Assembly (NCBI GenBank): GCA_051294375.1
Contig: CM119271.1
Location: forward strand, 5,073,520 to 5,137,519
DNA length: 64,000 bases
Origin: Paraspadella gotoi
Lineage: Eukaryota > Animalia > Chaetognatha
Reading direction: 5' to 3'
Part shown: positions 36,289-64,000 of the stretch, piece after piece
Numbering within the stretch: position 1 is the stretch's first letter
How the letters are laid out: each line of letters begins with the position of its first letter
Notes under the pieces: generated by a model
The model's input: only the letters and a program-made list of their open reading frames with translations
The model's database searches: none
Told to the model about the DNA's origin: nothing
Made by a program: the position numbers and the translations under genes

Positions 36289-36472
36289 CTCCTCAAAACA
36301 CAAACGGAGGAGGAATTTTTTAATTACTTTGATTTAGCAAATTTTTTTTGTTGTCGCAAATTTAGCAATTTTTTTCGAATCAGATTTCCAATTTTTTAAT
36401 TTTATTTTTTTTTCTGACTTCGATTCCAAAAAACTGAAAAAGTGGAAAACGAACTCACATTTCATCCATGAA

Positions 36473-36512
<40 letters not shown>

Positions 36513-36707
36513 CTCTCCTCTCTGCTCTCGAAATAAATGCAAATGAATTTAATGAGCAAAATTTTTTTTTTGTTTCCGCCGGTCTCTCTCTCTCTTCGCT
36601 TTTTTCGACCATTTAATATTATTATTAGTTTTTTATTATCATTATCCGACCATTTTATTATTCAGATTTTTCCCTCCGCATGGCGCGACAGACAGAATTA
36701 AAGCGAG

Positions 36708-36777
<70 letters not shown>

Positions 36778-39614: not shown

Positions 39615-40185
39615 AAAACGACGACGACAACGACGAAGTTGACGACGACGACAACTCTGAAGATAATGGTGACAACGACAACGACGAAGATAATGGGGAC
39701 GACGACAACGACCATGACGAAGCTGACGACGACGACAATGGTACAGAAAATGGTGACGACGACAATGACGAAGACAAAGATGACGACGACAACTCTGATG
39801 ATAATGGTGACAACGATGAAGACAAAGATAATGGTGACGACGACAACGACGAATATGATGATGACAATAGTGAAGATAATTGTGATGACGACAATGACGA
39901 AGACAAAGATGACGACAACAAAGGTGAAGATAATGGTGACGACGACAATGACAAAGACAAAGATGACGGCGACAACTCTGAAGATAATTGTGATGACGAC
40001 AAAGAAAAAGATAATGGGGATGACGAAAACGAAAACAACGAAGCTGATGACGACAATGACGAAGATAATGGTGATGACTACTATGAGAATGATGAAGATT
40101 ATGACGACGATAACTGTGAAGATATGGGTGGCAATGACAAAGACAAAGATAATGGTGATGATGACAACGACAATGACTGTGAGAT
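39615..40185 (+). repeat. Degenerate trinucleotide (GAC/GAT/AAC) low-complexity tract; one frame reads as Asp/Asn-rich
   Basis: About 570 nt without an indel. The + frame reads NDDDNDEVDDDDNSEDNGD... and has no upstream ATG in frame. Confidence 0.7.
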
Positions 40186-40700
40186 AAACATTAACATAAA
40201 CATAAACATTCGAACATTGCCCGTTCCTTTAACATGGGCCCGAATAGAAAAGACGTTTCTTATTTTATTGTGAAACTTTATTAGTCAAAATCCTACCGGA
40301 TACCATAAAAAATGAGTTTTTGAAGCGGCTACAACATTTAATTGAGCTCTGAAGAGAAACTAAAAAACGAATCGCGAGCTCTCACGCAAAGTAAAAATAT
40401 TTACAAAGGTCACTTTGAATTGTGGTCGTTTTATATTAACCTGAACGAGTGTTGAGAGAGAAAAAGATGNNNNNNNNNNNNNNNNNNNNNGACGAAGATG
40501 ACGACGACGACGACGACCCCTCTTTCTTACCCTGACTTTCTTCATCTCACCTTTTTTTCCGTCCGGTTTTCGGCGTTCGGCTTCTGCTTGCTAGTACGAG
40601 TCTCCTTTGCCGCAGTAGCCAATGCTGCAGCAGGGATTAGTCGGGAGTCCGTCGCGCATTCCGCATCGTTGCCGCATTTGCCGTGTAGGCGGAGACACAT

Positions 40701-41983: not shown

Positions 41984-42190
41984 CTGAATCAACCAGGATC
42001 TCAGTTCGAGAACTTAAAACAGAATCGATAATAAGCTGTTGCTGTTCTTGATTCAGCAGTTAATCCAAAACTCGGATTATTTTGTTTTTAACGAAAAGGA
42101 CACCTAATCTCTATTTTTTTTTATAGTTTTTTTTTAATTTCGTTCGTTTGTTTTATTTTCGTAAATAACCGAACGACTGAACTCAAGAGA

Positions 42191-44504
42191 ATGAACTTGA
42201 CGCGAGAAGAATCTTCCTCTTCTCTCTCAACCTCTTACCTTTCATCGACGTCGTCGTCGTCTTCGTCGTCCACGTCGTTACCATGCCAACGCCACCGTTT
42301 CGGCGCCATACCGGTCGTCGACATCCCCGTGGATTTGGACGAAGGTCTCCGCTCTTTCTGGCGGAGACGAGGCTCGGGAAAAGTGATGAAGCGGATCGCC
42401 CGCAGGATCCAAGATGATCTCGAGGCCGTCGCCAGGTCGTCCGAGATGTTTAGGTGAGGTTCATGGGGCCGAGATTTTTGGTCCGAGATTCTGTCGTGAT
42501 CGATTTAAGATCAACTTGCGTCGAGGGTCGTCTGCTAAGATCGCATTTAATTATTTATTTAGCGATGAAAATCTAATTCAAGAGCCGTTTTAAGCTAATT
42601 GTACTGTTAATTTTTTCGAATTTACCTTTTTACTTCGTGGATCAGAAGTACATAATTGAAATGGCAATTAAATGCTGTTTACTGCCATTAAAATGATCAT
42701 TTCTAGAATTTACAGTACAAGGTCGTTCTAGAAGCTTAGATGATATTGTTAATAAAGGACTTTCACTCAATTTGATGTAGAAATTTATCATGAATTCATT
42801 TATTAATCAAAGAGAAAATCGAATTTTTTATCCGTTTAAATATCATTTTTTGAAAGTGTACAAAACATTTCTTAAAAAAATCCAAAAAATTACACTCCTG
42901 CAATGTGCAAATGAAATTTTTGTTATTAAGAATTAGATTACTAAACCTCAAAAAATAATGCTGGGAACAATCAATTAATCGATCAAATCTACTAATCAAA
43001 TACATATGATCAATCAAATCAATCAAATCCATCGAATCAATTAACCTAATCAAATCTAGCAAATTAACGTAATTAACTTAATTATTAATAATTATTAATA
43101 ATTAATCATTAACACAAATCAAATCGCAGCGACCACCAAATCAGCGCATGGCTTCGTCAAGAACCCCTTGCGGCCACCCTCGACTTCCTCTCCGCCCTGA
43201 AGGATCATCCTTCCGCCATCAAACTCCGGCGCCTCGACGACTTCCTCAAGCAGACGGACAACGAGGCCGCGCGGACGATCTACTTGGGGCGGACGCCGGT
43301 CAGGATCACGGCGCCCCCGCCCAAGAGCGTCGTCGTCGTCGAGGGAACGTTAGAGGTCGGTCGTCGTCATCGGTCGGTCGGTCGGTCCGTCGTCGGTCGG
43401 TCGGGTCGGTCGGTCGTGTCGGTCGTCGGTCGTGTCTCGCGAGTCGGGGTTCGGTCGGTCGGTCGGTCGGTTCGGTCGTCGGTCGGTGTCGGTCGGTCGT
43501 CGGTGTCCGCGTGGCGGTCGTCGGTCCGTCGTCGGGGTCGGTGTCGGTCTGGGGTCGGTCCCGGTCGTCGGTCGGTCGGTCGGTCGGTTCGCGTCGGTCG
43601 GTCGGTCGGTCGGTCGGTCGGTCGGTCGTCGGCAAAAGATCATATTTCACAAACATTGACATAATTATGATAAATAAGAAAAGCGGTCTTGCCTCATGAG
43701 ATGTAATTATAATTGTAATTGTAATTGTAATAGGTTGAGGACTGATTGAAATGGCTCTCATAGACGTCTGAAATATTTGCAACTACGAAATCGACTACGA
43801 CTACAACCTATTATTGTTATTTTTGTTATTATTATTATTGTTATTTCTTATCCCAGGTGACGGTAGAAGCGATCGGGTTCCCTCGACCGCGCGCCATCTG
43901 GTTTCACGGGACCCGCCGTCTAGAAGACTCAACGAGGTGTGAAAGTTTGGAAGGCGATACATGGGCCTTATTTCCCGAAAGCGCTGCATTTCAGCTCGAA
44001 TTCAGAATTAAGTTAGAGATTTGTGTTGGGGTTAAAGCAAAGAGATTAAGGTTAGGGATTAGGGTTAAAAATTTGGTTAAAGATTTAAATTTCGCAGAAC
44101 ACAATTGAAGAGATACAACAAAGAATTATTCTTCATAGATGTTGTATCTCTTTCAAACATTTGTCTCTACCAATTTCATATTAACACAACGCAAGAAAGG
44201 ATATAATTCATAAAGATTAAATTCATAGATAGGCGCTTTCGGAAAATAGCGCCAAGGTATATCGATATTTCAAAAAAACGATATTCGTCTCAGTTATTAA
44301 GTTAAATCGAAGGATTACTCGGTTAGCTTGGTTCACTTGTAATTTTTATAAACGTTTTTCATTTGTAGTTAACCTATTTTTAAACATAATATTATCCCAA
44401 AATCATTACAATCAACCTAAAACATCTAAAAATATGCTAAAACGAGGACTTCGGGGCTATAAGTACAGAGAACGAGAGAGATTTGTTATCATAACTGATC
44501 GAAG

Positions 44505-44541
<37 letters not shown>

Positions 44542-45524
44542 GAATTTTTGAATTTGAATCTGAATTTTTTAAAGAATTTGTTTGATTGATAGACATTGTG
44601 TAAAGACTTACGATTTTTGTTGTTTTAGTAATTTGGAGAAAAACAATTTTATTTGTTTTGGCAACGAATTGTATTTGAGGCAATAAGCAGACACGTTTCG
44701 ACTCTGTAGTTTAGAGTCTTCATCAGTGTTTGAAAAATTACCAAGTTTTTCTCTTTAACATTAAGTTTGAGAAAGATAGAGAGAGAGACAGAGAGAGAAA
44801 GAGGGAGAGTTTCCAACTCAGAATTGAGAAAAGGACAGTGGTCAGATGTAAGGACAGGGGAGGAGTGAGTTTGGTGAAATTTGAAATTGAGAGAGAATGG
44901 GAGAGAGAGAGAGAGAGATAGAAAAATCTTTACATTTGACAATGTACAACAATGATAAAGAGATGTTAAAGAGAAAAACTTTTTAATTTTTCAAACACTG
45001 AGTCGAAACATGTCTGTTATTTCCTCAAATACAATTCGTTGCCAAAACAAATCAAATTGTTTTTCTCCTAAAGAATTTGTTTAAGAAACAGGTCCATGTT
45101 GTTCACTACAAGAAAACCCAAATAATTTTAGGAAACATTGAAAAAAGTCTTTATCTTCTGAGTAGCATAAAGTGAGCTGGGATTGAGGCCATATTAATTT
45201 TTATTCTCTTGAATTACAGCAGGAAAAAGAGAATTATTTTTCACAATGGCTTTTATTCTTCTTTTTCATATACTAAGTTGGCTGAGGCGAGTGGAGGAAG
45301 GTTTAGAAATGTTCTCAAAGCTCGCAGCTGAATTTTTTTAGATTTTTTCCCATTGGTAATCTGACTTAGTAACCCGGATCACACCTGAAAAGTCAAAATG
45401 GAACTCAAATATGGAAAGGACGAGTTGGAAGTTTGAAGCACTGATTTTAAGTAATTTTCTCTCAAAGTTTTTGAAAGTTTATTTAAGGCTACGATTTTGG
45501 ATTTAGCTTTATCAACTAAATGAT

Positions 45525-45570
<46 letters not shown>

Positions 45571-48500
45571 ACAAATTTTATTTTCGCGATTAAAAATAGC
45601 AAAGTCCATCCCTCCTTCCATTTTTTCCTCCGCGCTTCTGGCATTGTCCCAAAGAGCTTCTCAACACCCCCCAACGTCTCCCTTTCCCGCCGCAGCACTA
45701 CTCTCACACGCCCCGCCGCCGCCGCCGCCGACGCAGGCGAATATCGCTGCCGCGTTTTCAACGGCGACGATCCCGACGAAGACGTCGAACTCGAAGCCGT
45801 GTTCGTCGAGGTGCGGCCCCGCCGCTCCGTCCGGCTGCTGCGGGAATGCGACGCCAATCCTCTGCGGGTTCTGGGCGGACGTGGAGGCAGCGGCGCGCAG
45901 TGGCTGCGGCTCCGCTGCGTCGTTTCGCCGCCGCTGCCGCAGCCAAAGTTCGAGTGGAGGAAGGACGGAGCGGCGTTGGGCGGATTCGTCGGAGATAAGT
46001 TGGAGCGAATCGTCGACGTGTCCTCGGTGGAGGGAGATTACGAGTGAGTTTTTGCGTGGGATTTTTATTTATGACAACTTGTATATTTTTAATGATCAGC
46101 TATTTAAATATTGATGAGGCAATCATAAACTACATATAATGCTAATTATTAAATCATCGACAAAGACGTAGGAGCAAATGTAGAAAAACATACATCCCTG
46201 TGAGAAATTCAATCAAAAGATAAACAAGACCTCAGTTACTTGAAGAGTAGCGATCCATCCAATGTGTTGCGCCTCAGTGACTTTCTTTTCACGTCTATAA
46301 TATTTATGTATAACAAACGTCTTATGGTTAGATCACTACTGTGCAAAGTTTTATTTCAAAACAACCAGACCATTTAAGTTATGCATTTACTTGTGATCAT
46401 ATGACCATAGTTTGGCGTGACCACCTGACTATACAAGCATGAATCATATGTAAAAAACCTACATTTGAGGTTTTTTTTTCCTGTCCTAACAAATGAGCAC
46501 TAACTATAGGCTAATTATTGCATTTTGAACGTAAGTTGGACAGACAGACGACAGACGTACCGACCGACGAAAAGTGACTTCTAGTTATAGAGTCGCTGCG
46601 CGAGTACTCGCGGAAGCAACTAAAAACGGTTGATTCCAGCTCCACATTTTCTCACCTCCTCTCCTCCTCTTCCTCCCCCTCCTCCTCCAATATCCACCGC
46701 TATTCACTGGGATTTCCACTCCATTCGACTTTCGACTCTCTCTCCCGAGCTCAACGGGAAAAAAAAAATATTTAAACATAAAATTATAACGAATATAGAA
46801 ATGAATGGAATTAAAAAAAAAAAGGCTACGCAACCCGATTGAAACTTCATCTCATTCAGATGTCGCGTGACCTGGGATGACGGGACGACCCTCCAGTCGC
46901 CCGTCGAGTCCGTGGAGGTCAGGGTGGGCGATCCTCTTGCCGTTCTTCGGGAACCAGGGGACGTTACCGTCAGAGAAGGTTTGATCATATCGTTTGTAAG
47001 TATAAATGCCTATTTATTTCTTTTTTTGGCCGTTATTTTCCATTCGAAATTATTATTGTCCTCAACAGTAATAATCATTATCAGGAAGGAATTCTGCGCT
47101 GTACCGATTTTGTTTCTGTTACTATTTTTAAAATGTTAAAAAAAAAAGGATTATCAGCGATAATTATCATGATTAAATGTTAAATGTTATCTACATCATC
47201 AATATCAACATCAAATCATCATCATCAATTCATCATCGTCATCATCACCACCACCACCCCCGACCACCCCCAACCCCAACCTCCTCCCAGGCGCGCCCCT
47301 CCTCCTCGACTTCTCCCTCAACAGTTTCGTCGACGTCGAGTGTCGCTGGTTCTTCAACGGACGCCGCATCGACGACGCCTTCCTCCGCTCCTTTTGGCGG
47401 CGCGAGAATGTCGAGGGCGAGGCGTCGACGCGGCTGCGGATCCAAGGGGTGGGGAAGGCGCATCAAGGGGTGAGTCGAAAGAGGGAGAGTAAGGGGGTAA
47501 GTGGGTAAGGGGAGGACGGATTTTTTTTTTTTCTGATTGGAAATTGGTACAACCAATATAAAAAAATTATCCATTCATTTAATAAATAAGCTATCTTGTC
47601 CCTGACTTTGGACAGGCTTTGGTGGTTTAAGGCCTCCATCACACTTACGAGATAATAACGTAGCAGGTTTCTGCAAGCTTTCAATGAATTTATTGACTGA
47701 TTCAATGTTTTATTAATTAATTAATCGATTGATTTAATTGATTGATTGATTTTAGTCGTGGTTTCATTGTTTTGATTGATATATATATTTCCCGATTTCT
47801 TCATATTTCATGGTAATTATCCTTTCTTTTTCGTTGTTTGAGAGATTAACAAAGTTTGATTTTATTTTGCAACGAATTTTATTTTAAAAGAGCAGACATA
47901 TATAACTCATGTGCGCTGATGAAGGCTCGTATTGTGAGCCGAAACATGTCTGCTCTTTTAAAATAAAATTCGTTGCAAAATAAAATCAAACTTTGTTAAA
48001 ATTCATATTTCATAAATATTATTCAGTCCTTCAATCTATAATTGTTATACTACTACCATTATCAGCTGATCATCCAAAGATTTATAAAAATATTTTTTTT
48101 CCCATACAGCTTTACAACTGTTGCGTCACTGGAACAAGGGGGGAAATGTGTTTGACGAAGCAAGTCACTGTAAGTGTCTGTCTGTCTGTCAATCTATCTA
48201 TCTTTCTATCCATCCTTACCCACCCCTTACCCCACCCAATCTTAAAAATTAGGTAACCGTGGACCGTCCGGCCAACTATCACGCCGCCCAAAAGATCGCC
48301 CTCCTCATCGGCAACGGTCGCTACCGGAACCTTCGCCAACTAACGACGCCGCCCCAAGACCTCGCCCGCCTCGGCGAGGAGTTGGAGGCGCTGGAGTTCC
48401 GCGTGATGAGCTTCAACGACGTGGGGCGGACGACGACGTTGAAGGCGATGAAGATGCTCGTCGACGTGATCCGCCCTGGAGGATACGTCTTCTTCTTCTT

Positions 48501-51500
48501 CACGGTCACGGATTTCAAGAGGGAAACGACGTCACTTGATGCCCACCGAAGAGGACGGGGGTGAGGGGTGGTTTTGGGGGGGGTTTTGGGGGCTGTGGTG
48601 TGTAGAGGTGGTTAGGTGGTGCGTCGATTGACTTATATGAATTTAAAGTTTTATCGAGTCGAATCAAAATGATTGGAATTTACGGATTTTTTGGCGACTC
48701 GCAGTTTTAGACTCGCGTCAATCAGGATAACCTCAGTCACGACTTAATACTTTGTGACGACTGACGAGGGTCTCCAAAGATTGAAAAGTATAAATACGTA
48801 AACAAAGAAAAATTAAAATGTATAAATTAATTTAATTAAAATTAAGAACACTTCTTTTAACGTCTTCTCATGCACAGTTAATCTAATGATGAAAACGTTT
48901 ATCCTCCCTTTTCCTACACCTGAAATTGCTCTCTCTCTCACATTCCCTGCTTCTCTCGCTCCCCTTTCCCTTCTTCTTCCTCCCTCCCTTCTCTCTTACT
49001 CTCCCTGTCTCCTTTCCCTCCAATTCCTGCCTTTCTTTCCCTTATCTCCCTCCCCCTTCCCTCCCTCTTTCCTTTCCTCCCTCTCCCTTCTGGCCCTCCC
49101 ACTTTCCCTACATTCCTCCCTCCCTCTTTCATTCCTTCAGACGACGACGAACTCGGCATCAACTTCCAAGCTTTCGTCGACGCCGTCGAGTCAAAGTCTC
49201 CCGCGCTGACGGCTGCAGTGCTCGACACCTGCAGGGTGCCTTATCCGGGGAAGTTGAAGAAGGAGAGGAACTTCGTTCGTAAGAATCACAAGGTGTGTGA
49301 CAGAGTTGTGGGCATTCGACTGGATGTTAAAGATATTCAGTAAAGAGTGCAATGTCGCTGAGACTACATTGCAACTTAGTTGATCTCAAACTTTCGGCCT
49401 CTTGCTTAGTTGGCAACGCAAGACCACGACAGTGGTAGGGGTCCAAAGTTCCAAACCCTGAGATGGCCCGCGCTCTGGGCTTCACAGTTAATCCCTCCCG
49501 TTGCTAAAATAATTTGCTTTTTTAGTAATTGTGTAATCTTTATACATAGTCGGAAGCGGGAATTAATTAAGTCTTAATGAATGTGACAGATTAGAATTAA
49601 GAACAAAAGAATAAGATTTTTGAAAATATTTTTTTTTGGGGGGGAAAACCAGAGAAATAATAATCATGATCATCAATCACCACCATCATAACCACCACCT
49701 CTTCCACCACCCCCCCAACCCCCCCCAACGCAGGGCTCCACCATAATTCTCCACCCCACATCCTTCGGTCTTGAGTCCTACGAAGACCAGAATCGCGCCA
49801 ACGGCCTCGTGGTGGAGTATCTCCTGGCGGACGGCATCCTGCGCAGCCCCGTCAGCGTTAGAGAGGTTTTCTCTCGAGTCATGGACAGGATGCGATCGGA
49901 GAACCTCGTCGCCGCCCACGGGAAGGATCAGGTGAGGGGGAAGAAAGGAATGATGATGGGTTTATTGTGTGTTAATTGTCGTAGGGTGGATTTTTTTTGG
50001 GGTCGTCGTCATCTTCGTCTTGGTACTATCAAATAAAAAATATAATTATAAAATTATAAATACTATCCATTTATAACGTGAATAAGTTATCTCGCCTCGA
50101 ATTTGGATAGGTTACGCTGTTGTAAAATTGTTGTATTTTTTCGGTTTTTCGAACCAGAGTTAAATTTTTCTTAAGAATTATTTGTATGAGCTGTGCGCTT
50201 TAAAAACTTCTGTCTTCCTCTGAGCAAATAATTCTTAAGAAAAATTTAACTCTTTTAAGAAAAACCGAAAAAATATAACAAATTTACCAAAAATTAGTCG
50301 TAAAAATGAAAAAAAAAAGACAAGTGATAACGACAAGGACAACAACAACAACCAACAACAAAACCCTTGAATCCACTTCTCCATCAGTTCCCCGAACTCA
50401 AACTCCAACTGAGCGAGGAGCGCAGCCTCCATGACCCCGTCGACGCCCGCGTCTCTCAATCGCAGCGGCGACTCTTCCAACGCCTCGACGCGGAGATGTT
50501 CTGCTGCGTAGATGGCGATCGTTATCGGCAGGTGAGGCAAAGGGTAGGGATTACTGGGAGTGAGGAAACTAATTTCTCCAGCATTAATTGATGTGCAGAG
50601 GTGGTTTCATTGAGGGGACCCCGTGATAAAAATGATATCATAAGCTTATTAAGCTTATTAAGCTTAAGCGTCTATCATTAAAGGAATTGGGGGGAAAAAC
50701 TTGACTATTACTGTATTATAAATATTCTAGCTCGAAAGGAAGAATTGCATAAAAATAAGTTTATATTTGTTGTACCAATTTCATAAAAATAAGTTTATAC
50801 TCCCGCTGGCTTCAAAATAGTATTTCCTGGGCAGGCCCTTAAGCATCACTGGGGCATCGAGATCGGGCGGCCAATCACCAACGCGTTGAGAATCCGGGTC
50901 CCGGCCAAGACGCTTCGGACTCACGTGGTCACCTTCGGACCCGAGAGGTTAAATCGAGAGGACACAGTCTTCGCCGATTTGAACAAGATCGAAGATACAA
51001 ATGATATCGATCTCGTTGTATTTAATCAGGTGAGAGAGCGGCCTCTTATCTTTAGGATAGTCTTTTGTTAGTTTTTAATAAAATTTGTTTAATAGAGCAT
51101 AAATACTGTGGAAGGTTGACAAATATTTACTGTTTAATATTCGAGAAAAGAAACTTAATATATGTCGATACCTCCCATCCCGATGGTTCCAGGAATTAAG
51201 GTTTTTGAAGAGACAATAATGATTGTTGTGTGTTAGTGACAGAACCGTTCAATATAAGCAATCCCTGATCTTCGGATCAGGCTGTAACACCGTATTACAG
51301 TCGGGTTAAGCGCCTCATTCCTCTTAACTGCTAGGTGACCACTAGGCTAGAACCCCGAACCTTTGGGTTGGGAGGCGAATGACTTGCCTCTGGCACCAAT
51401 GGCTGCTGATGAACGGTTGGTGGATTTTAGTCCACCATACATCCCCCCCTCCCGTAGGGAGAAGTGAATTGTTGTTGGTGGAAAGTTCGTCACCAAGTTG

Positions 51501-53141
51501 AGGCATGTTGCCTGAAAGTGTTGTTGTTGCTGTTGTGTTCGGAAGTCGGGCTCACCAATGAAGAGACAATGATGATTGTTATGTGTCAGTGACAGAACCA
51601 TTCAATATAAGCAGTCCCTGAGCTTCGGATCAGGCTGTAACACAGTGTTACAGGCGGGTTAAGCGCCCCGTCCCTCTTAACTGCTAGGCGACCACCAGGC
51701 TAGAATCCCGGACCTTTGAGTTGGGAGGCGAATGACTTGCCTTTGGCACCAATGGCCCCTGATGAACGGTTGGTGGATTTTAGTCCACCATATTTTTTTC
51801 GATACAGTGACCGGTTAAAATTCGCCCCACCCGACAGGGAAGACCAATGTATCTGACGTAAGCCGCATACGTTGGTTCTTTGTCATTCTTCTCTTTATAT
51901 TTTATCGGAAATTTTATAAATTTATTCAGAATACGAAATTCAAAACGAGACTGCGAATTTATGACCGGCTCAACACTTTTATCAGGTTAGGGGAAATATT
52001 TGATCAGTTGGAAGGTGAACTTTCGTGTCATTAAATAATAATTTATAAAAATTCAAAAAATATGACACACAAGCATTAAACATGAAAATCTGAAGTACAT
52101 TTTTTTTTCTTATAATTTCAAACTGAGATGCTTCATTGATAGGCCAAAATAGTTAAATTTTATTAATAGTTTTATTTCACTATCAAAAATGCCACCGACT
52201 TTGGCCAGGCTTTGGTGAGTTAAAGCCTCCATCACTCTTACAAGATTTAATAACATTTGAATCAAGACTCGCAGTCACATATCATTGTTTTCTGTAACAG
52301 ATCTTACACGTTACCCAAAGACTTTCTCTCCACCGACGAATCTTCCACGAGTTCAAACGCTTGGACGGCGAATCTGGAGGAAGATTTGCCGCATCCCACG
52401 GAACAGGAGGCGGACGACGCATCGTGGAGGTTAGTTTCAACAGAAAATTGTACCTGAAACAAAAGCATAGCTCAATAATTATTTGTTTCTTTTTAGTAGT
52501 TCGTCTTCTACCACATATTCTGCAACGCACAACGAGCTGAAACGCTTATCTTCCTCCACTTATCAGTGAGTAGAGAGAAATTAGAATTAACTAAGAAAGA
52601 TCTCTCTCTCTCTCGGCTTTAAAATATTATCCTGCAAAAATATAAAATTAAAGAGAGATTTTATATTTTTTTTACTGTAAATTTTCTAGAAATAATTTAC
52701 AATTATCATAAGTAAAATAATAAAACTGTCATAAATCTATGATTTCTCTCTTGATCCAGCTCGACAAAGATGGCTGAAGAGGATGTCGACCAATGGACTT
52801 CCTTCCCGCCGCCGCAAATTCCTCGTTGCCCTCGTCATCAGCGTCCGGCTTCCTCTTCATCCCTCGGCGCCGGCGCGCCTTGCGATTGCCGGTATACGCC
52901 GACGCAGAACCCGATTGACTGCCGGTACACGGGATCTCAACATTCCGCCGATAATCGGTACAGTCATTTGAGAGAGCCAGAAGATTTCGGCGACGAGGAG
53001 CGTCCGGTCGACGAAGATTCGTCGGGACTTTTACCGGATTTTCGAATGCTTCGGGTGCCGGAAGAAGACGAGTTGGAACCAGATGAAACTTTGCAAGAAG
53101 AAGAAGAACTCTGGAAATTGGGAAAAGTCGTTCTCGTGTAA
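42191..53141 (+). CDS. MALT1: Type-1 paracaspase (MALT1-like): death-domain-like N-terminus, three Ig domains, caspase-like domain, C-terminal extension
   Basis: Exons (+): 42191-42453, 43130-43355, 43857-43936, 45696-46043, 46860-46978, 47291-47469, 48110-48169, 48253-48560, 49141-49292, 49734-49931, 50388-50531, 50835-51029, 51930-51985, 52301-52429, ~52500-52565, 52760-53141. Motifs: AAQKIALLIGNGRY; GHG (His codon 48507-09, needs frameshift correction); LDTCR (Cys 49230-32); ESYE..ANG; QFPELKLQLSEERSLHDP; Ig signatures DAGEYRC, GDYEC, GLYNC. Confidence 0.88.
43356..43632. repeat. (GTCG)n-derived microsatellite in MALT1 intron
   Basis: Tandem gtcg/ggtc units that start right at the donor site. 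Confidence 0.9.
43955..44265. mobile_element. MITE-like inverted-repeat element in MALT1 intron
   Basis: cgatacatgggccttatttcccgaaagcgc versus gcgctttcggaaaatagcgccaaggtatatcg (imperfect TIRs), plus an internal gaagagatacaaca/tgttgtatctcttt hairpin. Confidence 0.5.
44686..44731 (-). ncRNA. Minimal type-I hammerhead ribozyme (Penelope-like element type)
   Basis: Minus strand reads aaaca CUGAUGA a GACUCU-aaacuac-AGAGUC GAAAC GU GUC ugcuu: conserved core boxes, 6-bp stem II, GUC triplet. Confidence 0.75.
46222..46626 (+). mobile_element. Helentron/HINE-like repeat, copy 2 (MALT1 intron)
   Basis: Homologous to 19668-20011, with (GACA) microsatellite and terminal gcgagtactcgc hairpin. Confidence 0.55.
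47911..47955 (+). ncRNA. Minimal type-I hammerhead ribozyme (Penelope-like element type), sense to MALT1 pre-mRNA
   Basis: gugcg CUGAUGA (47916-22) a GGCUC-guauugu-GAGCC GAAACAUGUC ugc. Palindromic ACAUGU helix III. Predicted cleavage after 47950. Confidence 0.8.
50128..50282. repeat. Palindromic MITE-like foldback in MALT1 intron
   Basis: agagttaaatttttcttaagaattatttg ... caaataattcttaagaaaaatttaactct arms, with extended outer pairing. Confidence 0.65.
50611..50842. mobile_element. Truncated third copy of the Kolobok-like MITE
   Basis: ggggaccccgtgataaaaatgatatcataagctt is the reverse complement of the right end of 29046-30255. The right boundary is uncertain. Confidence 0.65.
51206..51792 (-). 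mobile_element. Tandem pair of tRNA-derived SINE-like elements (51206-51439 and 51559-51792)
   Basis: Two ~233-bp direct copies. The minus strand has A-box-like TGGTGCCAGAGG and B-box-like GGTTCTAGCC, followed by hairpins (cctgatc-ttcg-gatcagg; ctgtaa..ttacag). Confidence 0.7.
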
Positions 53142-54114
53142 GAATTGACGCCGTGGTTGTGGTTGTCATTTTAAAGAGTTGTCAGGGTGTCCACTGTCTA
53201 TTAGAATTTACAATGTTCTTATGAAAGCCTATTTAGACAGTGTCATAAGGACTTTCATAAGGACATTGCAAATTCTGTGCTACCTTTTCATCCTGTTACG
53301 AATTTTTCTGTATTTTAATATTCATTATTTTTTTAGAATTAGCTGAAATTGTTAAGAAAGCGTCTGCAAGCAATCCGGTTGAACCAAATGTGGTCAATAA
53401 ATAGTTCTTGTTGGTTTAAAAGGGGATTTTCAATCGGTTCGCGAAGCCGATCTTTTTTACAATCACCTTCATCACTTTTGTACGAGGCAGCTGTTTAAGG
53501 GAAAGCTATTGGAACCCAAATCGACCTTGTATAAATGTGAAGTCGCCTTTCCAAACTTACCAATTGACGTCAGAAACGAGAGTCAGTCTTGTTGTGTGAA
53601 GTGAAGATGCCCTCATTGCAAAATGAGGGCATCTTTTCTCCAGTTAACATCCTAATGCCTTGAAGATAATCTTCCATGATAGTTGGATAGAAATCATCAT
53701 TCTTAAACTTTGCTAAATCCAAAACGTTTATTGGACCATCCTGCCCTTCACATTTTATTTCCCAAAGTTGCTGGTTTTGCTCCCATTTAAACTATCTTGT
53801 GCAAAGTGTTAGGATTCAGTCTGTTCATGGCTTTGTAAAGGCCGTGGACAGGGTTGTAAAAAAGAAAAAGGTAATTAAGAAAATGGAAAAGGAACAGGAA
53901 AAATCCCAAAGGTGAACAGAGATGTATAAAAGTAACTTTGGGAGCCTTACTTCTGGTCACACATTCCAATCTGATGATGTCATATCCGGTCACTTCCCTT
54001 TTCAGTCATTTCTGATTCTAATTATAGTTGTCATTGCCAACATCTTATTGACACGCACCGTGCATGCGTGCGAAAAATTAACAGAATAACATCCTGCTGC
54101 AGAATCCGATTTCT

Positions 54115-54198
54115 TTTAATTCTTTCTCGCTATCTCTATCTCTCTTTTAATTTTCTCTCACTATCTCTCTCTCTCTGATTAAAGTTCGATCTTTGAGT
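54115..54198 (-). repeat. ~80-bp motif repeated three times (54115-54198, 54607-54689, 62614-62678), each upstream of minus-strand ORF remnants
   Basis: tcgctatctctatctctctttt(a/g)attttctctc(a/g)ctatc.ctctctctct shared by all three copies; gattaaagttcgatct shared by the first two. Confidence 0.7.
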
Positions 54199-55513
54199 GT
54201 AATCGCAGGTGTTTTATTCACCTGGTTTTGTAAATATTATTCTTTGGGTAAACACGATTGACAAACAGCTCCACAATTAAATTTAACAATTATTTACAAA
54301 GATTTAAATTTTATTTTTATTTAAATTTTAACAACATATAATTGATAAGTAAGGGAAGCGTCCATTATCGCAAATATTCCCCCCCTCATCACCTTCTCCA
54401 TCAAATGATTCTCCCATTTCCGCAATTTCTTCCTCCACCAACACCGTCTTCAATTGCATCACACCTTCCCGGACGGATCTTTTCCGGTTCTCTTTTCAAT
54501 TCTTGTTTCCCTGATGTGATGTAAATGATTTTGTTTTCCCACAAGAGTAATAATAAACGGGGTCTGCAGCTTGATCTAGAACCCGGGCGGGACTGGAGCA
54601 ATTTCTTTAATTTTCCATCGCTATCTCTATCTCTCTTTTAATTTTCTCTCGCTATCCCTCTCTCTCTGATTAAAGTTCGATCTTGAGTCTTGATATTTCA
54701 CACCCTATTTCAAATACGAGAGAAAACAATACTTTCTTTGGTTGAGCTTGATTATTATCATAATTATAAGTCCTAATCGCCTGATTAATAAAATCCATGT
54801 CAACGGTCAAAACGGGTTCGAGCATATCCAAACAAGTTAACAACTCTCAAATGATTAACGTCTAATTCTTTCAAAATCAAAAATGGTAAAAAAGTCTTTC
54901 TTATAGGTTTTAATTAGTTTTTTTCCTTTCGTAAGCCACTTCCTCCTCATTTCCTGGAATCGCCGTGAGTTCTTTCAGGTCGTCAATTTCGCTATAACGC
55001 CAATGCCTTTGCATAGTGTACTGACGAACTTGCATGTCTGTCACACATCCACGATTGTTAATCTTTTCATCGTGAACCAATATCCCCCGTTCCTAAAGAG
55101 TCTCGACATGGGAAGGAAAGTCTTTACGAAAATTCGGTTCACGTGTACTAAAAGTTCTAGTACTTGAAACATTTTTATTGTTAAAAAGTTTATTTCGATC
55201 CGTTCGTGACTAACGGAAAATCCACCGTTCGCAATTGCACCATTTTTGGCCATGTTTATGGTTTAATTCTAAAAAATTATAATGAATTTCATTGATCAAA
55301 AAATATAATTCAATTTTAATCAAACTCATAATTTATGATATTAAAGAAGTTAAATAATATAGCTAATGTTTAATTTATAATTAAAAAATTATTAATAATC
55401 AATATTCCCAATAATCAATATTCCCAATACAAAAAATCAATGTATTTAATAATTAAGCTTTTTGTCTAATCAATATTTTTCCCAAATAACAAAAAGATTG
55501 CTACGAAGCAATT

Positions 55514-55969
55514 TCATTTAACTCCTTTCACATTCTTTTTACAGTTCGCAACGATTAACTCGTCTTTGGTCAGAGACAAACCGAAACAGACAGGCGAACA
55601 AAAGAACAAAGAGCTAGAATGGGTCTCATAAACGTATGGTTTTATCTGCATGGTCGCCTTCGCGATGGCCGAGGTTTGCGGATGAAAGACGCTGATGGCA
55701 TAAGCTAAATGACTCGAAATCGGGAGTTTCATGCCGGATAAACTGTCCATGTTATGAGCTAAACTTTCTTTCTTGTCAAAGTTGGATTTTAAATCCCCTT
55801 CGTCCCACATTTCAATCAACTTGCGGGCTTCTTCGTAAGATATAAACAGCTTCAATGGACCAGAAGCCTTCTCCACGCGCTCGCTAGAACCCGCCCCGAC
55901 AAAACGTTCTTTAGACACTTTAAAATATCCCTCGCCTCCTTTCAAAAAAGAATGTGTAATGTAATGCAA
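55514..55969 (-). CDS. Orphan ~150-aa ORF of normal amino-acid composition (unknown function)
   Basis: Open, non-repetitive frame in AT-rich surroundings, with a possible acceptor at ~55986. No motif recognised. Confidence 0.45.
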   Translation of the reverse strand: MHYITHSFLKGGEGYFKVSKERFVGAGSSERVEKASGPLKLFISYEEARKLIEMWDEGDLKSNFDKKESLAHNMDSLSGMKLPISSHLAYAISVFHPQTSAIAKATMQIKPYVYETHSSSLFFCSPVCFGLSLTKDELIVANCKKNVKGVK

Positions 55970-56549
55970 ACTCGAGCGGTCGATCTGAGATTATAAAGAT
56001 TGGACTTTGATCTTTTGTTTGAAAATACGTAACCATTTTTGAAATTGAATTATTTATAATACTTAAGTACAAACGACGAATTTTTACCCTGAGAATTTTC
56101 CATATGATGAACTAGGATTTCGATTTACATTTACAGTAGATACTGTTTGTAATGAATTAAACACCTTTGTTACGACTATAAGAAATATATAATTATTGAT
56201 ATTTATACAATTAATATAAAAAAACAAAAACATGCAATTACCCAAAAAATTGGCCACCATAAAAAACTATAGATTAAGTTAAAAATAAATTTGGGTTAAA
56301 GGTACAATATAAAATTTATGGATTTATCCGAAGAATTAAATGAAGAAGATGACAATTTTTAAAATGTCGTGATGTCAAAAAGGACATTATCGTCATCTTC
56401 ATTTTCATTTAATTCTTGGGATATATTTGAAAATTCTATATTGTTCCTTTGTTGAACCAAATTTATTTGGCTCAACAATTTATACGGCGGGAGGGTATTG
56501 TTTCACTTTGGTCTTCTTCGGCATCTTCTTCTTCTATTGATATATTTTT

Positions 56550-57405
56550 TTATTTTAGTTTTTTTTCCTTACTTGAATTAACATTTTTAACATTTTTGAA
56601 AATAATAATAACAAAAGTTAAAATAAAAACTAAAATCAACAAATTTGCTAATCCGATTGTTGTCATGATCCAATTTGAGCTATGAAAAAGAATAAAAAAA
56701 ACCGAATTAAGAAAAACAGAAATATATAATAATGATGATGATGATAACATTTAACAATATAAAATATTCATATTAATTTTTTACTTGTTTTGTTGACTCG
56801 TGGTTGGGTCTGCCGATCTTGTAATTGAATTGGAAGTCGAACTGTGAAATAAAAAAAACGAAAAAAAAAACAACTAAAGATGTACACTTTTAAAAAATGA
56901 ATATAAACAATAAAAAATATGAGAACAACTTTAAATTCATTACTTGTTATTGTACGATATTGTAGACTCCGCCGTCGAAGCCATGGACGCCGCTGACGTC
57001 ACCAGTGTTGAGGGCGCCTCTGGTGACGTCATCGGCATGGACGGCGTCGTCTTTGACGCCGGTGACGTCGCCGAGGTAGATGGCATTGACATCGGCGACG
57101 TCACAGACGTCGATGGCACCGCCGATGGATTCTTAGGGGAGACGGAGATGAGATGAGACCGGGTTCATGGACGAGGAGGAGAAAGGCGGGTTTATGGACG
57201 ACGAGACGGAGGACGGGAGGACGTTCGGGGTCGCCGGTGACATCGTTGCCAACGAAGGAAAAATGGTCCATGACGTCACCGACGTGGGATTTACGGACGA
57301 AATGGAGGATGGTGTAGCCGATGACGTCCTTGCCCATGGATGAAAGGTCACTGGCGTATTTGTTGTCACTTTATTCGTCCGTGTAGTTGACGTGCACGTC
57401 GCCAT
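56550..57405 (-). pseudogene. Ser/Thr/Pro-rich mucin-like single-pass membrane protein, copy 1 (spliced, frameshifted)
   Basis: Exons 56944-~57405 (S/T/P-rich, one frameshift near 57140), 56785-56841 and 56550-56679, joined by phase-2 GT-AG introns. TM segment NWIMTTIGLANLLILVFILTFVIIIF followed by KNVKN. Confidence 0.6.
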
Positions 57406-57865
57406 CGTCGTCGTCCATTTTCCTTTTTAGTTCATCGGTTCAAATGGATTGATAGCGACATGATGGTGGGGTTGAGGGTTTATAAAGGAGGGGAAGATTA
57501 TTTGTTGGGCGATGTGGAGGGGTAATAAATGGGAGTTAATTTGAATTAAATGGGGAGGGAAGGTAATGGTTAAAACAGTGGGGGTAAATAAATCATGATA
57601 ATATGCAGTATTATTTAAATGTACAAAGGTGATGGAGAAGCGACGACGACGTCTAGAGGGATGTCTTCCATCTCCATCTCCAATGTACAAGATTTGAGTG
57701 GCGGTGGTGGTGTCGGCCAACTCAAATATTGTGGGTTCTATGATAGAGCTTGATTTGTTGCTTGCGTTGTTGTTGTCGTGTCTCATCGGGAAATTGTGTT
57801 ACCAGATTTTAAATTCAAATAACAATCAAAACGCTTAACGCGTTTTGAATGTTGTTATTAATCAT

Positions 57866-59130
57866 TTATAGCGTCATTCCTGACGAAGCAGTCAGGTAGG
57901 CGGGCGTCCCAGGTGGTAAACTTGGCATAGTGACCCAAGTGACCAGTGGTAGGGGAGACTCGGGGAGGTTTGGAGAATCATGTGTGGAATGAAAGATGCT
58001 GGTGGGTGGAACCTCTTGATTCATTATGGTGTTGGAGGAAGCAGTGATTGATTGGGTGTCTAGAAGGGGAGGTTCAATTCTACCATTAAGACTTTGCCAG
58101 TACCATAGCTGAGGAGGTATTCCATAGTCATTTAACCACTTTGCTGGAAATTCATCATCATAGTATTCTTTAATAGTATCCAAATCAAACAATGACCTGA
58201 TATTTGTATACATTTCATCTCTTAGCATATAACTGGTAGGGCACTTATGAAAAGTTAAAGGGACATTAATACAGATAGTAGCTCCTTGTTCTTTGTGAAT
58301 GCTTAATAGGGCCTGTTTGCTGTCTCTAAGCACATCATCTGCAACTTTTATAGCGCTAGCATAGTTTTTTTCATCTGCATAAATCATGGTCATCAATCGA
58401 ACTTTCGCACTCAAGAAGACAATTTTCTCTAAGTCAAAATGTTTAGCTGGTATGAACTCATAATAAGGGATGCAAATTTTTAGCCTTCTGGCTCTTAAAC
58501 TCTGTGATGTCACTTAAACAGCTGAACTGACAATAATCTCCTCTTCATTATTTGACTTCCATTTGTATGCTCTGGTTGTGTAGTATTTTTTAAGCTCCTT
58601 AAGTGTCCGTGTCAGTTCTTTTTCAGTGTTATCAGCCCCCTTCCCTTCTACCCATTCTGTTATCCACTGGATTCTACTTTGTCTAATTTCTGGTAAAGTT
58701 AATAATGACAAGTATACAGATACCACATCAGCACTTTCCTTGTGGAATCTCATCTTTTCCTCTGGTTTTGCCAAATTGACTGCTTCTTCTAGCTGATTCA
58801 ATATTGGGTTTTCATTTAATATATCAATCATTGACCCATCACTCAAAAATATTTCTGCTGTTCTAGCATTTTTCCCTGAGGTTTCAGTGTCCCTTGCTTG
58901 GCTGAGGTGATCATCGGGACCCTGCTCACCTCTTAGCGAAAACCCGATGGCTGAGCTGGAAGTGAAGTGTTGATCGATGGGAGTGGAGGCTGTGGAGTTT
59001 GGGCTCGAGATGTTTCAACCTGGGTGGCCTGAAGTGGAGCTTGTTGGTGCTGGGCACCTTGAGGAGGAGGTTGTGGCTGGTGCTGGGTGTTTTGAAGTGG
59101 AGGCTGTGGGTTGCCCTGTGCCGTTGCAAA
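57866..59130 (-). pseudogene. Degraded ~400-codon ORF of unknown origin (Gln/Pro-rich start, CpG-depleted)
   Basis: ORFs 58514-58846 and 57866-58513 abut in the same frame across a single TAA. The Q/P-rich segment 58933-59130 joins by a frameshift. CG dinucleotides are visibly rare compared with the flanks. Confidence 0.5.
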
Positions 59131-60078
59131 AAAAATGTCACAACCGTTACAAACGGATAATTCTGAGGACAAAGTAAAAAAGGAAAAATTGGATATATTA
59201 AATATGAATGTTAGTAAGAATTTTAAAAAGCTTGTAATTTTTTTCGCCGAAAAAAATGCGTAATAAAAAATGCCAAAAAACGCCAAAAAAGACATTTTTC
59301 ATGGCCTTTTTTTCTTTGGAAAACATGTACCGTGGTAGTAAGTATGTTAAACGTATGGAATAATAATAATAACGAAAGAGGGCAGAAGTAAGGTCGTTTA
59401 TACCGATCGACTGACCAACCGACGAAAATCTGAAAACCAAGGGGGGAAAAGGAAAAAAAACTCATGAGTGTTTGTTTTTTTTCGCTTTTCCCCCTTTTTT
59501 TTCGCCGTTTAAAAGAAAAGAGAGAGAGAGAGAAAGAGATAGTAACTAATATTACTACTACGAATAACTTAGCTTTTTTCGCCGGCACCGCGCATCGTGG
59601 TCGTCCACCCCACCCCGTCCCATCTTCTTCTTGGCTTCGGGGTCCATTTTCTTTGTTCGGACATGTATTATTCCAAGGGAGAGAGAGTCGCATTTTTATA
59701 GGCAAAATTTTTTTTTTATCTCTCACTGTGGTGGTGAAAAAGATTGGTTAACGAGAGTAGGTAAAAATGGTGGTTTTATTAAAAAATTAATGAAAAATTG
59801 TTACGATTACCACCACCGAGTATCGATAAAAGTCAAGAAAATAATAGTTTTTTTCGTTCGCTTTTTGGATGGACAAAGAGAGAGAGGTCCCGCCACAGCG
59901 ACAGCTGCGTCAGACGCTGCTAAAAAGTTACTTTCTGCTGGATCGTCGATCCCTCCTGGCTCCTCGTTGTCACGCTCCTCTTCTTCTTCCATTATTCGGA
60001 GGGGAGAGAGAGAGTTCCACGAGGGTGGATAAGTGTCATCGTCGTCGTCCTGCTGGGCCCTTCTCGTCATCCACGTCG

Positions 60079-62262
60079 TCATCGCCCCGTCTTTTCGTCG
60101 TCCCTCGTCGTCGTCGTCTCTCTCCTCCTCTCTTCGGCGTCCAAGATAGCCGCGGCTCGAAACGCCAGATGATGGTTCAAGGGGAGGGAATAATAAGGAC
60201 TCAGCCAGAAGCGTTTGTCCTGTTAGTAATATATATAAATATATATAAATATCTATATATAAATATAAACAAAAAAAATTCAACTACTAACTTTGAAATT
60301 GCTGAGGGAAATTTTTTCCAATTCGACCTTGAACATGGAATATCCGACCGTTCTAAATTGAGTTAGTCTGTGTCGTCTGGGCCTGTCATGACTCAAGACG
60401 TCTTCGAACAAGTCTGTCGTTATAATAATAACAATGATATTTACATAGTACTACATAAATGTAAATCTCTCTCTCTCTCTAAAAACCGACCTGTATTCGT
60501 CAAACGTTGAGCCACCAATCTCTTGGTTATTCCCTTACATCTGGCGCTTTTTTTGACGACGACGAGCCTCTTATCATCGTCATCAACTCCTCCTCAAAGG
60601 GCCAGGTCCTGGCGACGTATCCGTCGGGATCCCCAAAAGTGGCCAGAGTTTCCAAGGAATAACATTTTGGCTTGAGGGATACGCATTTGTACAAAAATCC
60701 GGCACCGGACTCGTCTGTTATTTTAAAAAATGAAATGAAATAAAGTAAAAGGGAAAAAGGGTGAAAGAGAGAGAAAGAGAGTGAGAGAGAAAGAGAGAGA
60801 GTGAGAGAGAAAGAGAGAGAGAGAGAGAAAAAAAGATTTTTTTCTTTCTCGCACCTTTTAAACAACTGAGTCGATTCCTGTTATAATCCCTCCACAGACG
60901 TAATAAAGGCATCCTGTCCTTATTTTCCAACCAATATGGATGAGTTTCTTTGGGACTATAAATGATATAATTATATATTGTACCAATTTCATAATATAAA
61001 TAATCTAATAATGATAATTCAATAATCAATTATTATTATTTATTAGTCTTTAACGTCCAAAATGAAACATAGATTGGCCCAATCGCACCAAAACGAAGCC
61101 AGTCGGCTCTCGTATCGAAAAGCCAATACAAACGAATCCTAAATTATTATTATTTATTAAGTAGAATATTAATCCCCAAAAAAATCGGCTCATCGTGTCA
61201 TTTTACTGTAATCTCACGATCACGTCGGTCCTTGCTTTGTTAAATACTCTTCTTAAATTCATTTGGAAAAATAAAATATTGTGAAATTTTGAATTTTCCA
61301 ATATGATACCTGGATAATTAATTAATTGATTAATTAATTGAATAATTAAATAATTTCTGCGGTAAATAAAATACCTCCGACCATTATCGGTTTGTTCAAA
61401 TTTTGAGACATTGCTTTACCTATAATGATAATAATAATAATAATCCAAAATGAGTTTATCCTGCTGCCGCCGCATCGCAATAATCGTGACCCATCGACTC
61501 ATCGAGTCGTCGGGTCTCTCGAGTCGCGACTATATACTTAGTAACTAAAGCCTACCCCCCTCTCCCTTCAAGGTGAGTACTATCGCAAATCGATCTCGGT
61601 ACTCGAATAGTCGCGAACCGAGGGCGTCACTCGATGAGCCAAGGTGCCATGATTAAAGAATAAAGTTGGTAAACATATTATCACGATGATAAAAATACAT
61701 AGAGATTGGTAAAATCTTGATAAATTAAATGTGTGCTGCCATCGTCCTCAGACGATAAAGGATCGAAGCCCACTTCGCGATTATTGGCAACGGCGTAGCG
61801 CTCAGAAACTTCGCATATGCCTCCGCGAATCATGCGATTGTACGTTAAATACTGAAGGGAATCGGCTTTGCTAAATAATGGGATTTCCACCTTGGTCAAG
61901 GACAGAAAAATGTCGAGACTGATTCCTGCGAAACAGTAATAGTGGGTCGGCGAAATGCCGTGAAGTTTTATCGTGTTTTCTATAAAGTATTCGAAAACTG
62001 CTTCTAAGGTCAAAGTGTCTATCGTATTGTAAAATAGAATTATTTGACCAAAGTTGCTAAAGTTGAACATACGATAGATGGCGAGTGTTTTTTCGTAATC
62101 TTATCGACTGCAAACTTCCTTGGACATATCGTCGGTAAATTCCTCGATGAACGGAAGGTTGGGATCGCTCAAACGGTCCAACGAAAATGCCGAATATGGC
62201 ATTTTTATTTTTTGTAAAATTTGCATAAAATTTTGCCCTTTAGCTTCCCCATAAGTTTCCAC
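60079..62262 (-). pseudogene. polB: Polinton/Maverick/adintovirus-type protein-primed family-B DNA polymerase, interrupted by spliceosomal introns and degraded
   Basis: Segments (-): 61699-62262 (KMPY..., ISPTHYY, MIRGGICEVSERYAVANN, LIYQDFTNLY); 61375-61419 (GKAMSQNLNKPIMVG); 61194-61309 (GIILENSK...LQ*NDT); 61055-61138 (DSFVLAF); ~60855-60955 (THPYW...CLK); 60491-60714 (DESG...VSLKPKCYS...RCKGITKRLV); 60292-60413 (FRT...KISLSNFK); 60079-60219 (DKRFW...SLPLNHH). Motif order matches the Polinton-type pPolB C-terminal half. Confidence 0.85.
61492..61648. mobile_element. Small inverted-repeat element inside a polB intron
   Basis: ctcatcgagt...tcgcgactat versus atagtcgcga...actcgatgag arms. Confidence 0.5.
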
Positions 62263-63505
62263 CTATGACCTATGACTACACGATTCTACGGCGATGTTCA
62301 TCTGTACATCGGAATCTCCCAAAACCCTTTCTACACACTGGTGCCATCTATCGAAATTTTCCCCTAATAGTTCTACGCTAAATCTATTGAAGAATGATCT
62401 GTAACCTAATAAATTTATTAGGAAATCTTCCCCCTCTTCCCAATTACTAAACTCTACCTTACTCAGAATTTTATATGATATAGTATACATTTCAAATATA
62501 TCCCACATAAGAGAGTAAGAAAAACCGGTAGAAAAATGTATCATGTTGAAAAACTGTTAGTCCGGTTAAGTCACATACTGTAGAAACGGGGTCCGATTCA
62601 AACACACTTTGTCTTTTATTTCTTTCTCGCTATCTCTATCTCTCTTTTGATTTTCTCTCGCTATCTCTCTCTCTCTTTTATTTGAACTCGGCGAACTCGT
62701 TGAAGTCGAGATAAGAGATCTTGAGATCTTTTTTTGAGTTTGATCTTTTGTTTAAATTATTGAGTTACTTAAGTACATCTACAAACCAAGGTATAATTAT
62801 ATTATCTTTTGTTTAAATTTTCTTTGACTCGAATTTTCTTTGACTCGAATAATCTTTTTAAGTACAATCTTTTAATTACTCTCTCTCTCTCCTCTCTTCT
62901 CTTTCTCTCTCTCTCTCTCTCTCTTTTCTCGATCTTTCTCTCTGTCCATTTTTGCACGTGAATCACACCTGATTTTTGAAAATGGATTTGAGGATTTGAG
63001 TAAATACAAACATTAAACATTTTGATGTCAATCGTATCTAAAAGCTTTTTACAATGCTTATCAGGATTGTTTGATTTGAGATTTAACAGTAGTTACTTTT
63101 TTAGATTTAAAAAAATTAAGATATAATATCGTTAAAATGAGTATATTAAATTATAAAAAAAAACAATGACACAAAAAATAAATGAATGATTAATTAAATA
63201 TATCAATTATTTAAAAAATTAGCCAGCGTAAAAAACCCGTGATTTTATTTAAAAAATAAGAAAATTTTTAAAATTAAGGGAAATATTGAATTAAACGATT
63301 TAAGAGAAAGAATTAATTAAAGAGAGCTGGTGATGTCGAAAAGCACATCGTCATCACTTCGTTTAATTCTTCTCCAAATGTTTAACTCAATATTTCCTTT
63401 TAAATTAATTTGGCTAATCGGGGGTTTTTGATGCTGGCTAATTTTTTGGGGGAAGGGATAAAAGATGAGAACATATTTACATTGTGGGTTGCAAGGGGGG
63501 GAAAT

Positions 63506-64000
63506 TTATTTCCTCTGGTTCTTCCTCTTCCTGTTCTTCAACCAAATATTTGACGATTTTAATTGTCTTTTTTCTTTTACATTTTTCTTTACCATTTTAA
63601 AATAATAATAATGAAACTTAAATACATAATTTAAAATCATCAAATTACCCAGAGAAAGAGTTATTAACATCCAGTTTGTTGAAGACTTGGACACTGGGGA
63701 TGGGTAGGATGAGCTGGAGGAGGAATTTGCAATCGAGGTCGCCTGTGACGCAGATGACGTCGCCGGGGTCGATGATATCGACATTGTTTTGTTTACCGGC
63801 GACGTCATAAACGTCGGCGGCCTAGACGAGGTCGGTGTAGTTGTATCCGTTTGCACCCTCGGGGACGACGCCGAGGGTGCTGAAGATGCCGGGTCTTTTG
63901 ATGTGTTACTTGTAGATTTCGGCGACGCCGGAGCGGTGCTGCTCAACGGCGCCGACGAAGAACTTGGCGCCGACGAAGAACTTGGCGCCGGGTCTCTTGA
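63506..64000 (-). pseudogene. Ser/Thr/Pro-rich mucin-like membrane protein, copy 2 (runs off window)
   Basis: S/T/P-rich frame ending STNWMLITLSLGNLMIL, paralogous to SNWIMTTIGLANLLIL of copy 1. The rest of the TM and the acidic tail need frame changes. Confidence 0.55.

Follow-up and report, generated by a model that had tools for sequence, protein, structure and literature searches.

A decayed Maverick/Polinton-type DNA polymerase B gene in Paraspadella gotoi whose predicted introns likely predate its decay

The core genes of Mavericks have been described as free of introns. None were seen in intact vertebrate Mavericks, and the 'introns' that Genewise proposes in degraded ones are treated as insertions (PMC8097293); in nematode Mavericks introns are confined to cargo genes (Widen et al., 10.1101/2022.07.12.499685). 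Here we analyse a window of 64,000 nucleotides (nt) of AT-rich animal DNA, from Paraspadella gotoi (contig CM119271.1; all positions are those of the window), which holds on its minus strand, at 62238-60082, a Maverick/Polinton-type protein-primed DNA polymerase B (pPolB) gene, or polB, interrupted by seven predicted introns. We read it as a decayed copy from a multi-copy family that probably gained spliceosomal introns while functional and would have needed the host spliceosome. The vertebrate and nematode elements are likewise integrated, multi-copy, mostly degraded and provided with pPolB. The window gene shares with Maverick/Polinton (adintovirus, polintovirus) pPolB the protein family and the motif order, and differs in its seven predicted introns, in the absence of the motif B region and in an N-terminal half that is absent from the window.

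Two other systems come close in having introns. Maverick-polinton-like elements of dinoflagellates contain introners, described as repeated and transposon-derived, about 25% of them in coding regions and mostly acquired after integration (PMC11957031; PMC12166617). These are likewise intron-type sequences inside polinton-like elements, but their hosts are protists, whereas the introns described here are mutually unrelated, all in a core replication gene, and in an animal. Repeated, mutually similar introns were not found within the window; since the seven resemble neither one another nor anything else in it beyond simple repeats (AAT tracts), they do not appear to form an introner family. Mirusviruses carry spliceosomal introns in core genes, from which Medvedeva et al. 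(2025, PMC12768974) conclude that these viruses reproduce in the nucleus, yet these are unrelated large protist viruses, with introns enriched in virion genes and often endonuclease-coding, while those of the window polB are short and non-coding. The intron passages of PMC12220804, 10.64898/2026.10.13.758929, PMC8502044, PMC11296320 and PMC11244446 report no spliceosomal introns in Maverick polB, and no paper describing an intron-split animal Maverick polB was found in the literature searched, outside which subscription papers, supplements and Repbase mostly lie. Jeong et al. retained only pPolB open reading frames (ORFs) of at least 900 amino acids (PMC10748475), a filter by which an intron-split family would be dropped, and introns are not considered in the sections consulted of a survey of 7103 genomes (10.1101/2025.04.19.649669).

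The identity of the gene was established by protein comparison. Its largest exon, exon A (query 62208-61699, with a stop read as X), was searched against 1.84 billion representative proteins and gave 2228 matches at E<=0.001, the best of them 40% identical (E 7.8e-23). Among ten relatives looked up, four were named: two insect proteins, one 'DNA polymerase, partial' and one hypothetical. A Pfam scan of 11 relatives (among 150 listed) found Endonuclease_7 in eight and DNA_pol_B_2 (PF03175) in two. The divergent 'Beta' class of Starrett et al. is described as missing PF03175 (PMC8502044); 9 of the 11 relatives miss it too, and by this class description, not by comparison with named Beta proteins, the window polB probably belongs there. 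From 37 relatives complete at the C-terminus we built a profile of 742 positions, against which nine window segments, joined with an X at each break, align as two domains, of 151.0 bits (profile 152-335) and 61.3 bits (profile 542-736). Taken by themselves in genomic order, the C-terminal segments reach 65.3 bits; shuffling their order 60 times gave at most 39.5 (mean 14.3), and 60 residue shuffles gave at most 0. The way in which the relatives were found has no bearing on this match. Motif names (A, B, C, ExoIII, KxY) follow textbook usage; the acidic residues of ExoIII, motif A and motif C are retained. What the window holds is thus part of a protein-primed family B polymerase, profile 152-335 and 542-736 of 742. 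The collinear alignment, well above the shuffles, agrees with the original prediction of a Polinton-type pPolB and argues against a spliced product without collinearity. The further claim, that removal of the introns restores correct motif spacing, does not hold throughout: the pieces are in order, but the interval from motif A to KPxxxG, discussed below, is much shorter than in relatives.

Pfam and PHROGs recognise none of the polB pieces of the window; the profile of the relatives, compared with solved structures, found zinc-finger matches only and no polymerase; word-index homologue searches with exon A, for longer and for near lengths, gave nothing, and a scan of IMG/VR with exon A as query gave no relative. 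One locus from a metagenome scan was discarded as a bacterial false match, having no match to the profile. The best pPolB match itself bears a bacterial genus name and comes from a metagenome bin, on a contig of 1182 bases; it is likely a mis-binned Maverick fragment. On the homology taken together, the assignment of the locus to Maverick/Polinton-type pPolB is supported.

The predicted exons and introns, in the direction of transcription, are:

61699-62238, minus strand: exon A, from the end of the exonuclease domain (ExoIII) to motif A; profile 152-328; 540 nt without an intron; in-frame stop at 62103-62101.
61420-61698, minus strand: predicted intron 1, 279 nt, GT..AG, directly after motif A; the reading frames on its two sides differ by one base.
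61375-61419, minus strand: exon of 45 nt, holding the junction of a large internal loss (profile 335, then 542).
61310-61374, minus strand: predicted intron 2, 65 nt, GT..AG, phase 1, GC content 0.17.
61194-61309, minus strand: exon before motif C; in-frame stop at 61205-61203.
61139-61193, minus strand: predicted intron 3, AT..AG with a non-canonical donor, 55 nt, phase 0; it cuts through the DTDS motif.
61089-61138, minus strand: exon after motif C; its 3' end is uncertain and could reach 61055.
60956-61088, minus strand: predicted intron 4 in its best reading, 133 nt, GT..AG, phase 2.
60855-60955, minus strand: exon; four of five differences in a related copy are synonymous.
60715-60854, minus strand: predicted intron 5, GT..AG, 140 nt, phase 1; a (CT)n/(GA)n tract occupies 60766-60828.
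60491-60714, minus strand: exon carrying the motifs KxY and KG; within a 28-residue insertion relative to the profile the frame breaks, somewhere from 60596 to about 60555.
60414-60490, minus strand: predicted intron 6, 77 nt, GT..AG, phase 1, in a weakly conserved region.
60292-60413, minus strand: exon of the thumb region, profile 674-717.
60220-60291, minus strand: predicted intron 7, 72 nt, GT..AG, phase 0, GC content 0.12.
60079-60219, minus strand: last exon and stop codon, matching the profile up to position 736 of 742.

All seven predicted introns (55-279 nt, GC content 0.12-0.43) end in AG, each after an AT-rich tract; six donors are GT and one is AT, and an exonic AG precedes three of the donors. 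Five are GT..AG with the frame kept, one is AT..AG in frame, and one is GT..AG with the frame off by one. Five of them had been listed in the original prediction, with the coordinates and ends that we find. The insert resembling a miniature inverted-repeat transposable element (MITE) that it mentioned is present after motif A, with a GC-richer core and inverted arms that match imperfectly (78% over 27 nt, 88% over 16 nt); this 279-nt insert is itself a GT..AG intron (61698-61420) missing from that list. The tract of (GA)n repeats is there as described, and the junction around 60955-61055, flagged as uncertain, is best read as intron 61088-60956. The claim that the introns look like those of the host also stood: 12 introns of a neighbouring host gene, chosen by eye (58-501 nt, GC content 0.21-0.44), are similar in size and make-up.

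To these features the protein profile adds a measure of where each cut should lie. At each junction we took every cut that keeps the frame and lies no more than 15 nt from either end (320-321 per junction) and scored it against the profile. The GT..AG cut was tied for best at three of the seven (rank 1 of 321 for introns 2 and 5, tied best of 321 for intron 7), with a chance of about 1e-4 allowing any three of seven, and the AT..AG cut in motif C (intron 3) came within 0.1 bit of the best. For intron 1 the best cuts take out 278 nt, one below the GT..AG span, which is why the frame is off by one there in this copy. The chosen reading of intron 4 scores 65.3 bits, against 63.7 and 55.2 for other donors. 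Extending the exon after motif C to 61055 was rejected, as the score is lower (60.1 vs 65.3 bits) and the frame stays broken; a related copy has 4 differences in the 33 nt of 61087-61055, compared with 1 in 50 nt for the preceding exon. That the inserts behave like real introns is supported by these comparisons, and splicing is predicted.

One could suspect instead that the inserts are random insertions into a dead, intronless Maverick polB, with GT-AG ends arisen by chance. This copy is indeed dead, with one MITE-like core, one AT donor and one insert that leaves the frame off by one, and Barreat and Katzourakis read such gaps in degraded vertebrate elements as insertions (PMC8097293). In 40 related IMG/VR loci intron-sized inserts are absent altogether: the matched part lies in one ORF in 37, and in the other three it is split by frameshifts without excess DNA, in a search that favours unsplit genes. 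The window gene, with seven interruptions, departs from this intronless state of the core genes. Yet chance insertion accounts poorly for the cuts that the profile prefers and for seven inserts of seven ending in AG after an AT-rich tract, and diverged copies are interrupted at the same sites, with exon differences that lean synonymous. We regard it as very unlikely, and with it the case of random post-decay insertions that would have refuted the original prediction.

The evidence from other copies comes from sequencing runs. The stretch is present in nine public DNA runs of one organism, from three studies, and five of these were compared as contigs (X1, X2, X3, X6 and X9); among RNA runs none was listed for 60000-62500, from which we conclude nothing. 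Diverged related contigs appear in all five, as would be expected of interspersed multiple copies. At the site of intron 1 related contigs follow exon A to 61697 and then turn into AT-rich sequence unlike the local intron (five of five runs). At the end of intron 3 other contigs match the exon after motif C and leave at 61142 into different AT-rich sequence (X6, X9). Intron 4 is spanned by one X9 contig, in which the listed indels are all intronic (two gap rows are unlisted). Loose ends at 60966 and 61011 were set aside: the motif there recurs near 47540 and 50780, and the contigs likely stem from another small repeat. No contig joint skips an intron, among two joints in all, both unrelated, and contigs show presence, not absence. 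A joint seen in X1, X2 and X6 with 21 letters on its short side, drops 1368 bases from 61286 to 62655, leading from the exon before motif C to an abundant repeat, and is possibly another truncated copy.

Coding differences were pooled over several copies (21 coding among 40 listed, with 17 more unlisted, plus 7 new ones; intronic and outside rows were excluded). Fifteen of the 28 listed coding differences are synonymous, compared with a fraction of 0.29 expected at the observed transition share (p 0.006), and 13 of 24 when the four in the uncertain 61087-61055 are dropped (p 0.012). Because related copies are interrupted at shared sites, carry a third intron and differ in their exons with a lean toward synonymous changes, the introns likely predate the decay, and we infer that copies already bearing introns diverged under selection on the protein.

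The window copy itself is a pseudogene: it has two in-frame stops, its frame is broken in two places, and one donor is AT. Judged from its sequence, it would not be a working polymerase even if fully spliced. Both stops noted in the original prediction, 62101-03 and 61203-05, are TAA, and the frameshift it put near 60595 falls within the break listed above. About 205 residues are lost as well, which the original prediction overlooked. Motif A and KPxxxG are 9 residues apart here; the pattern was found in 33 of the 37 relatives, and there the distance is 170-223 residues, with a median of 214. Motif B (profile 483-492) falls within the gap, so that an open frame with motifs A, B and C, as in an active family B polymerase, is absent. 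The loss keeps the frame, and the point where its sides join falls within the 45-nt exon (61419-61375) rather than at an intron. Across 61310-61453 the same 144 letters stand in contigs of X1, X2 and X6, and an assembly error behind the loss was rejected, as they keep the same length across it. Both stops are covered by contigs without alternative letters. The loss and the stops are thus real in the DNA, given that contigs of several runs agree (X1 or X2 may be the window's own source).

The 5' half of the gene may have been cut off. Homology to pPolB begins near 62238, where related contigs depart too (a loose end of related copies lies at 62260 in X3 and X6), and the abundant repeat at 62542-62775 follows; 1.7 kb remain on this side before the window ends. 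A continuation of pPolB into 62263-62499 was rejected for lack of any match. An unexplained coding-looking frame of 97 amino acids (62266-62556, minus strand) continues in frame into exon A, yet has no pPolB match.

Several observations weigh against introns gained in a functional multi-copy family. The GT..AG cuts of introns 4 and 6, in weakly conserved parts, rank only 38 and 59 of 321. Three of the seven introns were seen to be shared, on the strength of loose ends of 30 letters plus a single contig; in the related copy the intron 1 donor was not readable. The synonymous count pools several copies and covers listed differences only. The segment 61310-61453 was masked as a repeat in the contig comparison, which makes motif B in the other copies unreadable. 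No other Maverick gene or terminal repeat was found in the window, by weak scans, and the long branch in our tree, described next, is also expected of a domesticated gene.

This last pair of points leads to the strongest alternative, namely that the host captured and domesticated the polB of a Maverick, which then acquired its introns in the role of a host gene and was duplicated along with host DNA, the present copy being a dead paralogue; the loss of motif B could then be family-wide and leave a non-polymerising nucleic-acid-binding protein. The gene is indeed solitary among host genes, with no other Maverick gene detected. When 694 ORFs from 40 related IMG/VR loci were compared with the window by tblastn for integrase, ATPase, protease and capsid, only polB was found, plus one weak match of 27 residues near 40300. 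A comparison of 123 fragments of 50300-64000 with Pfam gave no relevant match. Both scans have low sensitivity for split, divergent genes, and Pfam misses the polB exon itself. Self-comparison of the window found no long inverted pair around polB, the other end of which may lie beyond 64000. The phylogeny that had been suggested as a check, run as a quick tree, places the protein on a very long end branch (3.43 vs a median of 0.9), with a placement that is unsure, a careful search unfinished and a large gap that may inflate the branch. Host-like introns, the purifying signal among copies, a large loss that keeps the frame and joins inside one exon, and the tandem duplication of another gene in the window also suit domestication. 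It fits less well with the retention of motif A, motif C and the ExoIII acidic residues, with the 13 of 28 coding differences that still change residues, and with the depth of the related contigs, whose ratio to the locus varies widely between runs, as a mobile repeat would explain better. Contig depth, which is no copy number and gives a weak hint of uneven abundance, is 1598-2401 for relatives and 186-242 for the locus in X6, and 23.5-30.5 and 13-17 in X9; relatives are many times deeper than the locus in X3 and X6, whereas in X1 and X9 their depth is about one to four times that of the locus. We consider domestication unlikely. Of the two options left by the original prediction, an intron-bearing lineage and a domesticated polymerase, the former, as a multi-copy family, probably fits better than a single domesticated gene.

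The same depths could be taken to mean that the abundant relative is a free polintovirus, episomal or infecting, with introns of its own, and the locus an old integrated fragment of it. Related contigs many times deeper than the locus in X3 and X6 would agree with this, and adintovirus DNA in free, linear form has been reported from animal data sets (PMC8502044). Collapsed genomic repeats give the same picture, however, the exon query gave no relative in IMG/VR, and no contig ends or terminal repeats were seen, which makes a free virus highly improbable. A bolder version of the multi-copy reading is that the family is a still-mobile animal Maverick/polintovirus lineage, with a replication gene of eight or more exons, introns at motifs A and C, and replication that depends on splicing and could be switched by it; the abundant relative in some runs would be the live member, and ORF-based surveys would have overlooked the lineage as a whole. 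We hold this tentatively, with more doubt than confidence.

In the multi-copy reading that we prefer, an integrated ancestor transcribed in the nucleus would have acquired its introns, short and AT-rich, within the 3' half of polB. Copies of this split gene would then have arisen and diverged, with selection acting on the protein and with turnover of the intron sequences. The present copy would later have collected its two stops, two frame breaks, spoiled donor and MITE-like insert; the loss of about 205 residues with motif B could stand early or late in this order. Splicing, the order of events and the mobility of the family are inferred from these comparisons.

The surroundings are those of host DNA. 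A multi-exon gene on the plus strand, at about 42000-50000, encodes immunoglobulin domains (45520-46044) and a caspase domain (48253-48561), an arrangement which we take to be MALT1-like. On the minus strand another multi-exon gene stands in tandem duplicate (24200-28360 and 30700-38820), with exon blocks 68-92% alike; one exon matches NAD_binding_8 and Amino_oxidase, as in a pair of flavin amine oxidoreductase-like genes. A GAC-rich tandem array on the plus strand (39544-40273; 27-nt unit, about 20 copies) has several frames open. The repeat upstream of polB, with a 31-nt unit, occurs three times in the window (62542-62775, 54109-54198, 54601-54688), and the first of these is very abundant, with by far the top contig depth of the compared stretch. 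Imperfect, MITE-like palindromes of 150-240 nt lie at 63213-63447, 56283-56468, 50122-50287 and 47846-47999; the similar surroundings of the first two suggest a single unit of which 56300-57150 and 63200-63850 would be old copies. Downstream of polB at a distance of 1 kb, and likewise on the minus strand, lie two long frames in register (57866-59014; 166 and 215 amino acids, one stop between), possibly the remains of an accessory gene that belonged to this element; they have no match in Pfam, PHROGs or homologue searches, and ORF 57869-58513 has no usable match in the ESM Atlas. A further coding-looking frame, of 158 amino acids, remains unexplained (55514-55990, minus strand).

As a pseudogene, the window copy has its value in adding a host and in the evidence that the introns came before the decay. 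Since intronless relatives supply a known ancestral state, families of this kind would be well suited to testing how introns are gained, and where. If a family with selected, inherited polB introns is real, part of Maverick diversity would be invisible to surveys of long ORFs, and such elements would be able to persist in the nucleus long enough to take on the gene structure of their host.
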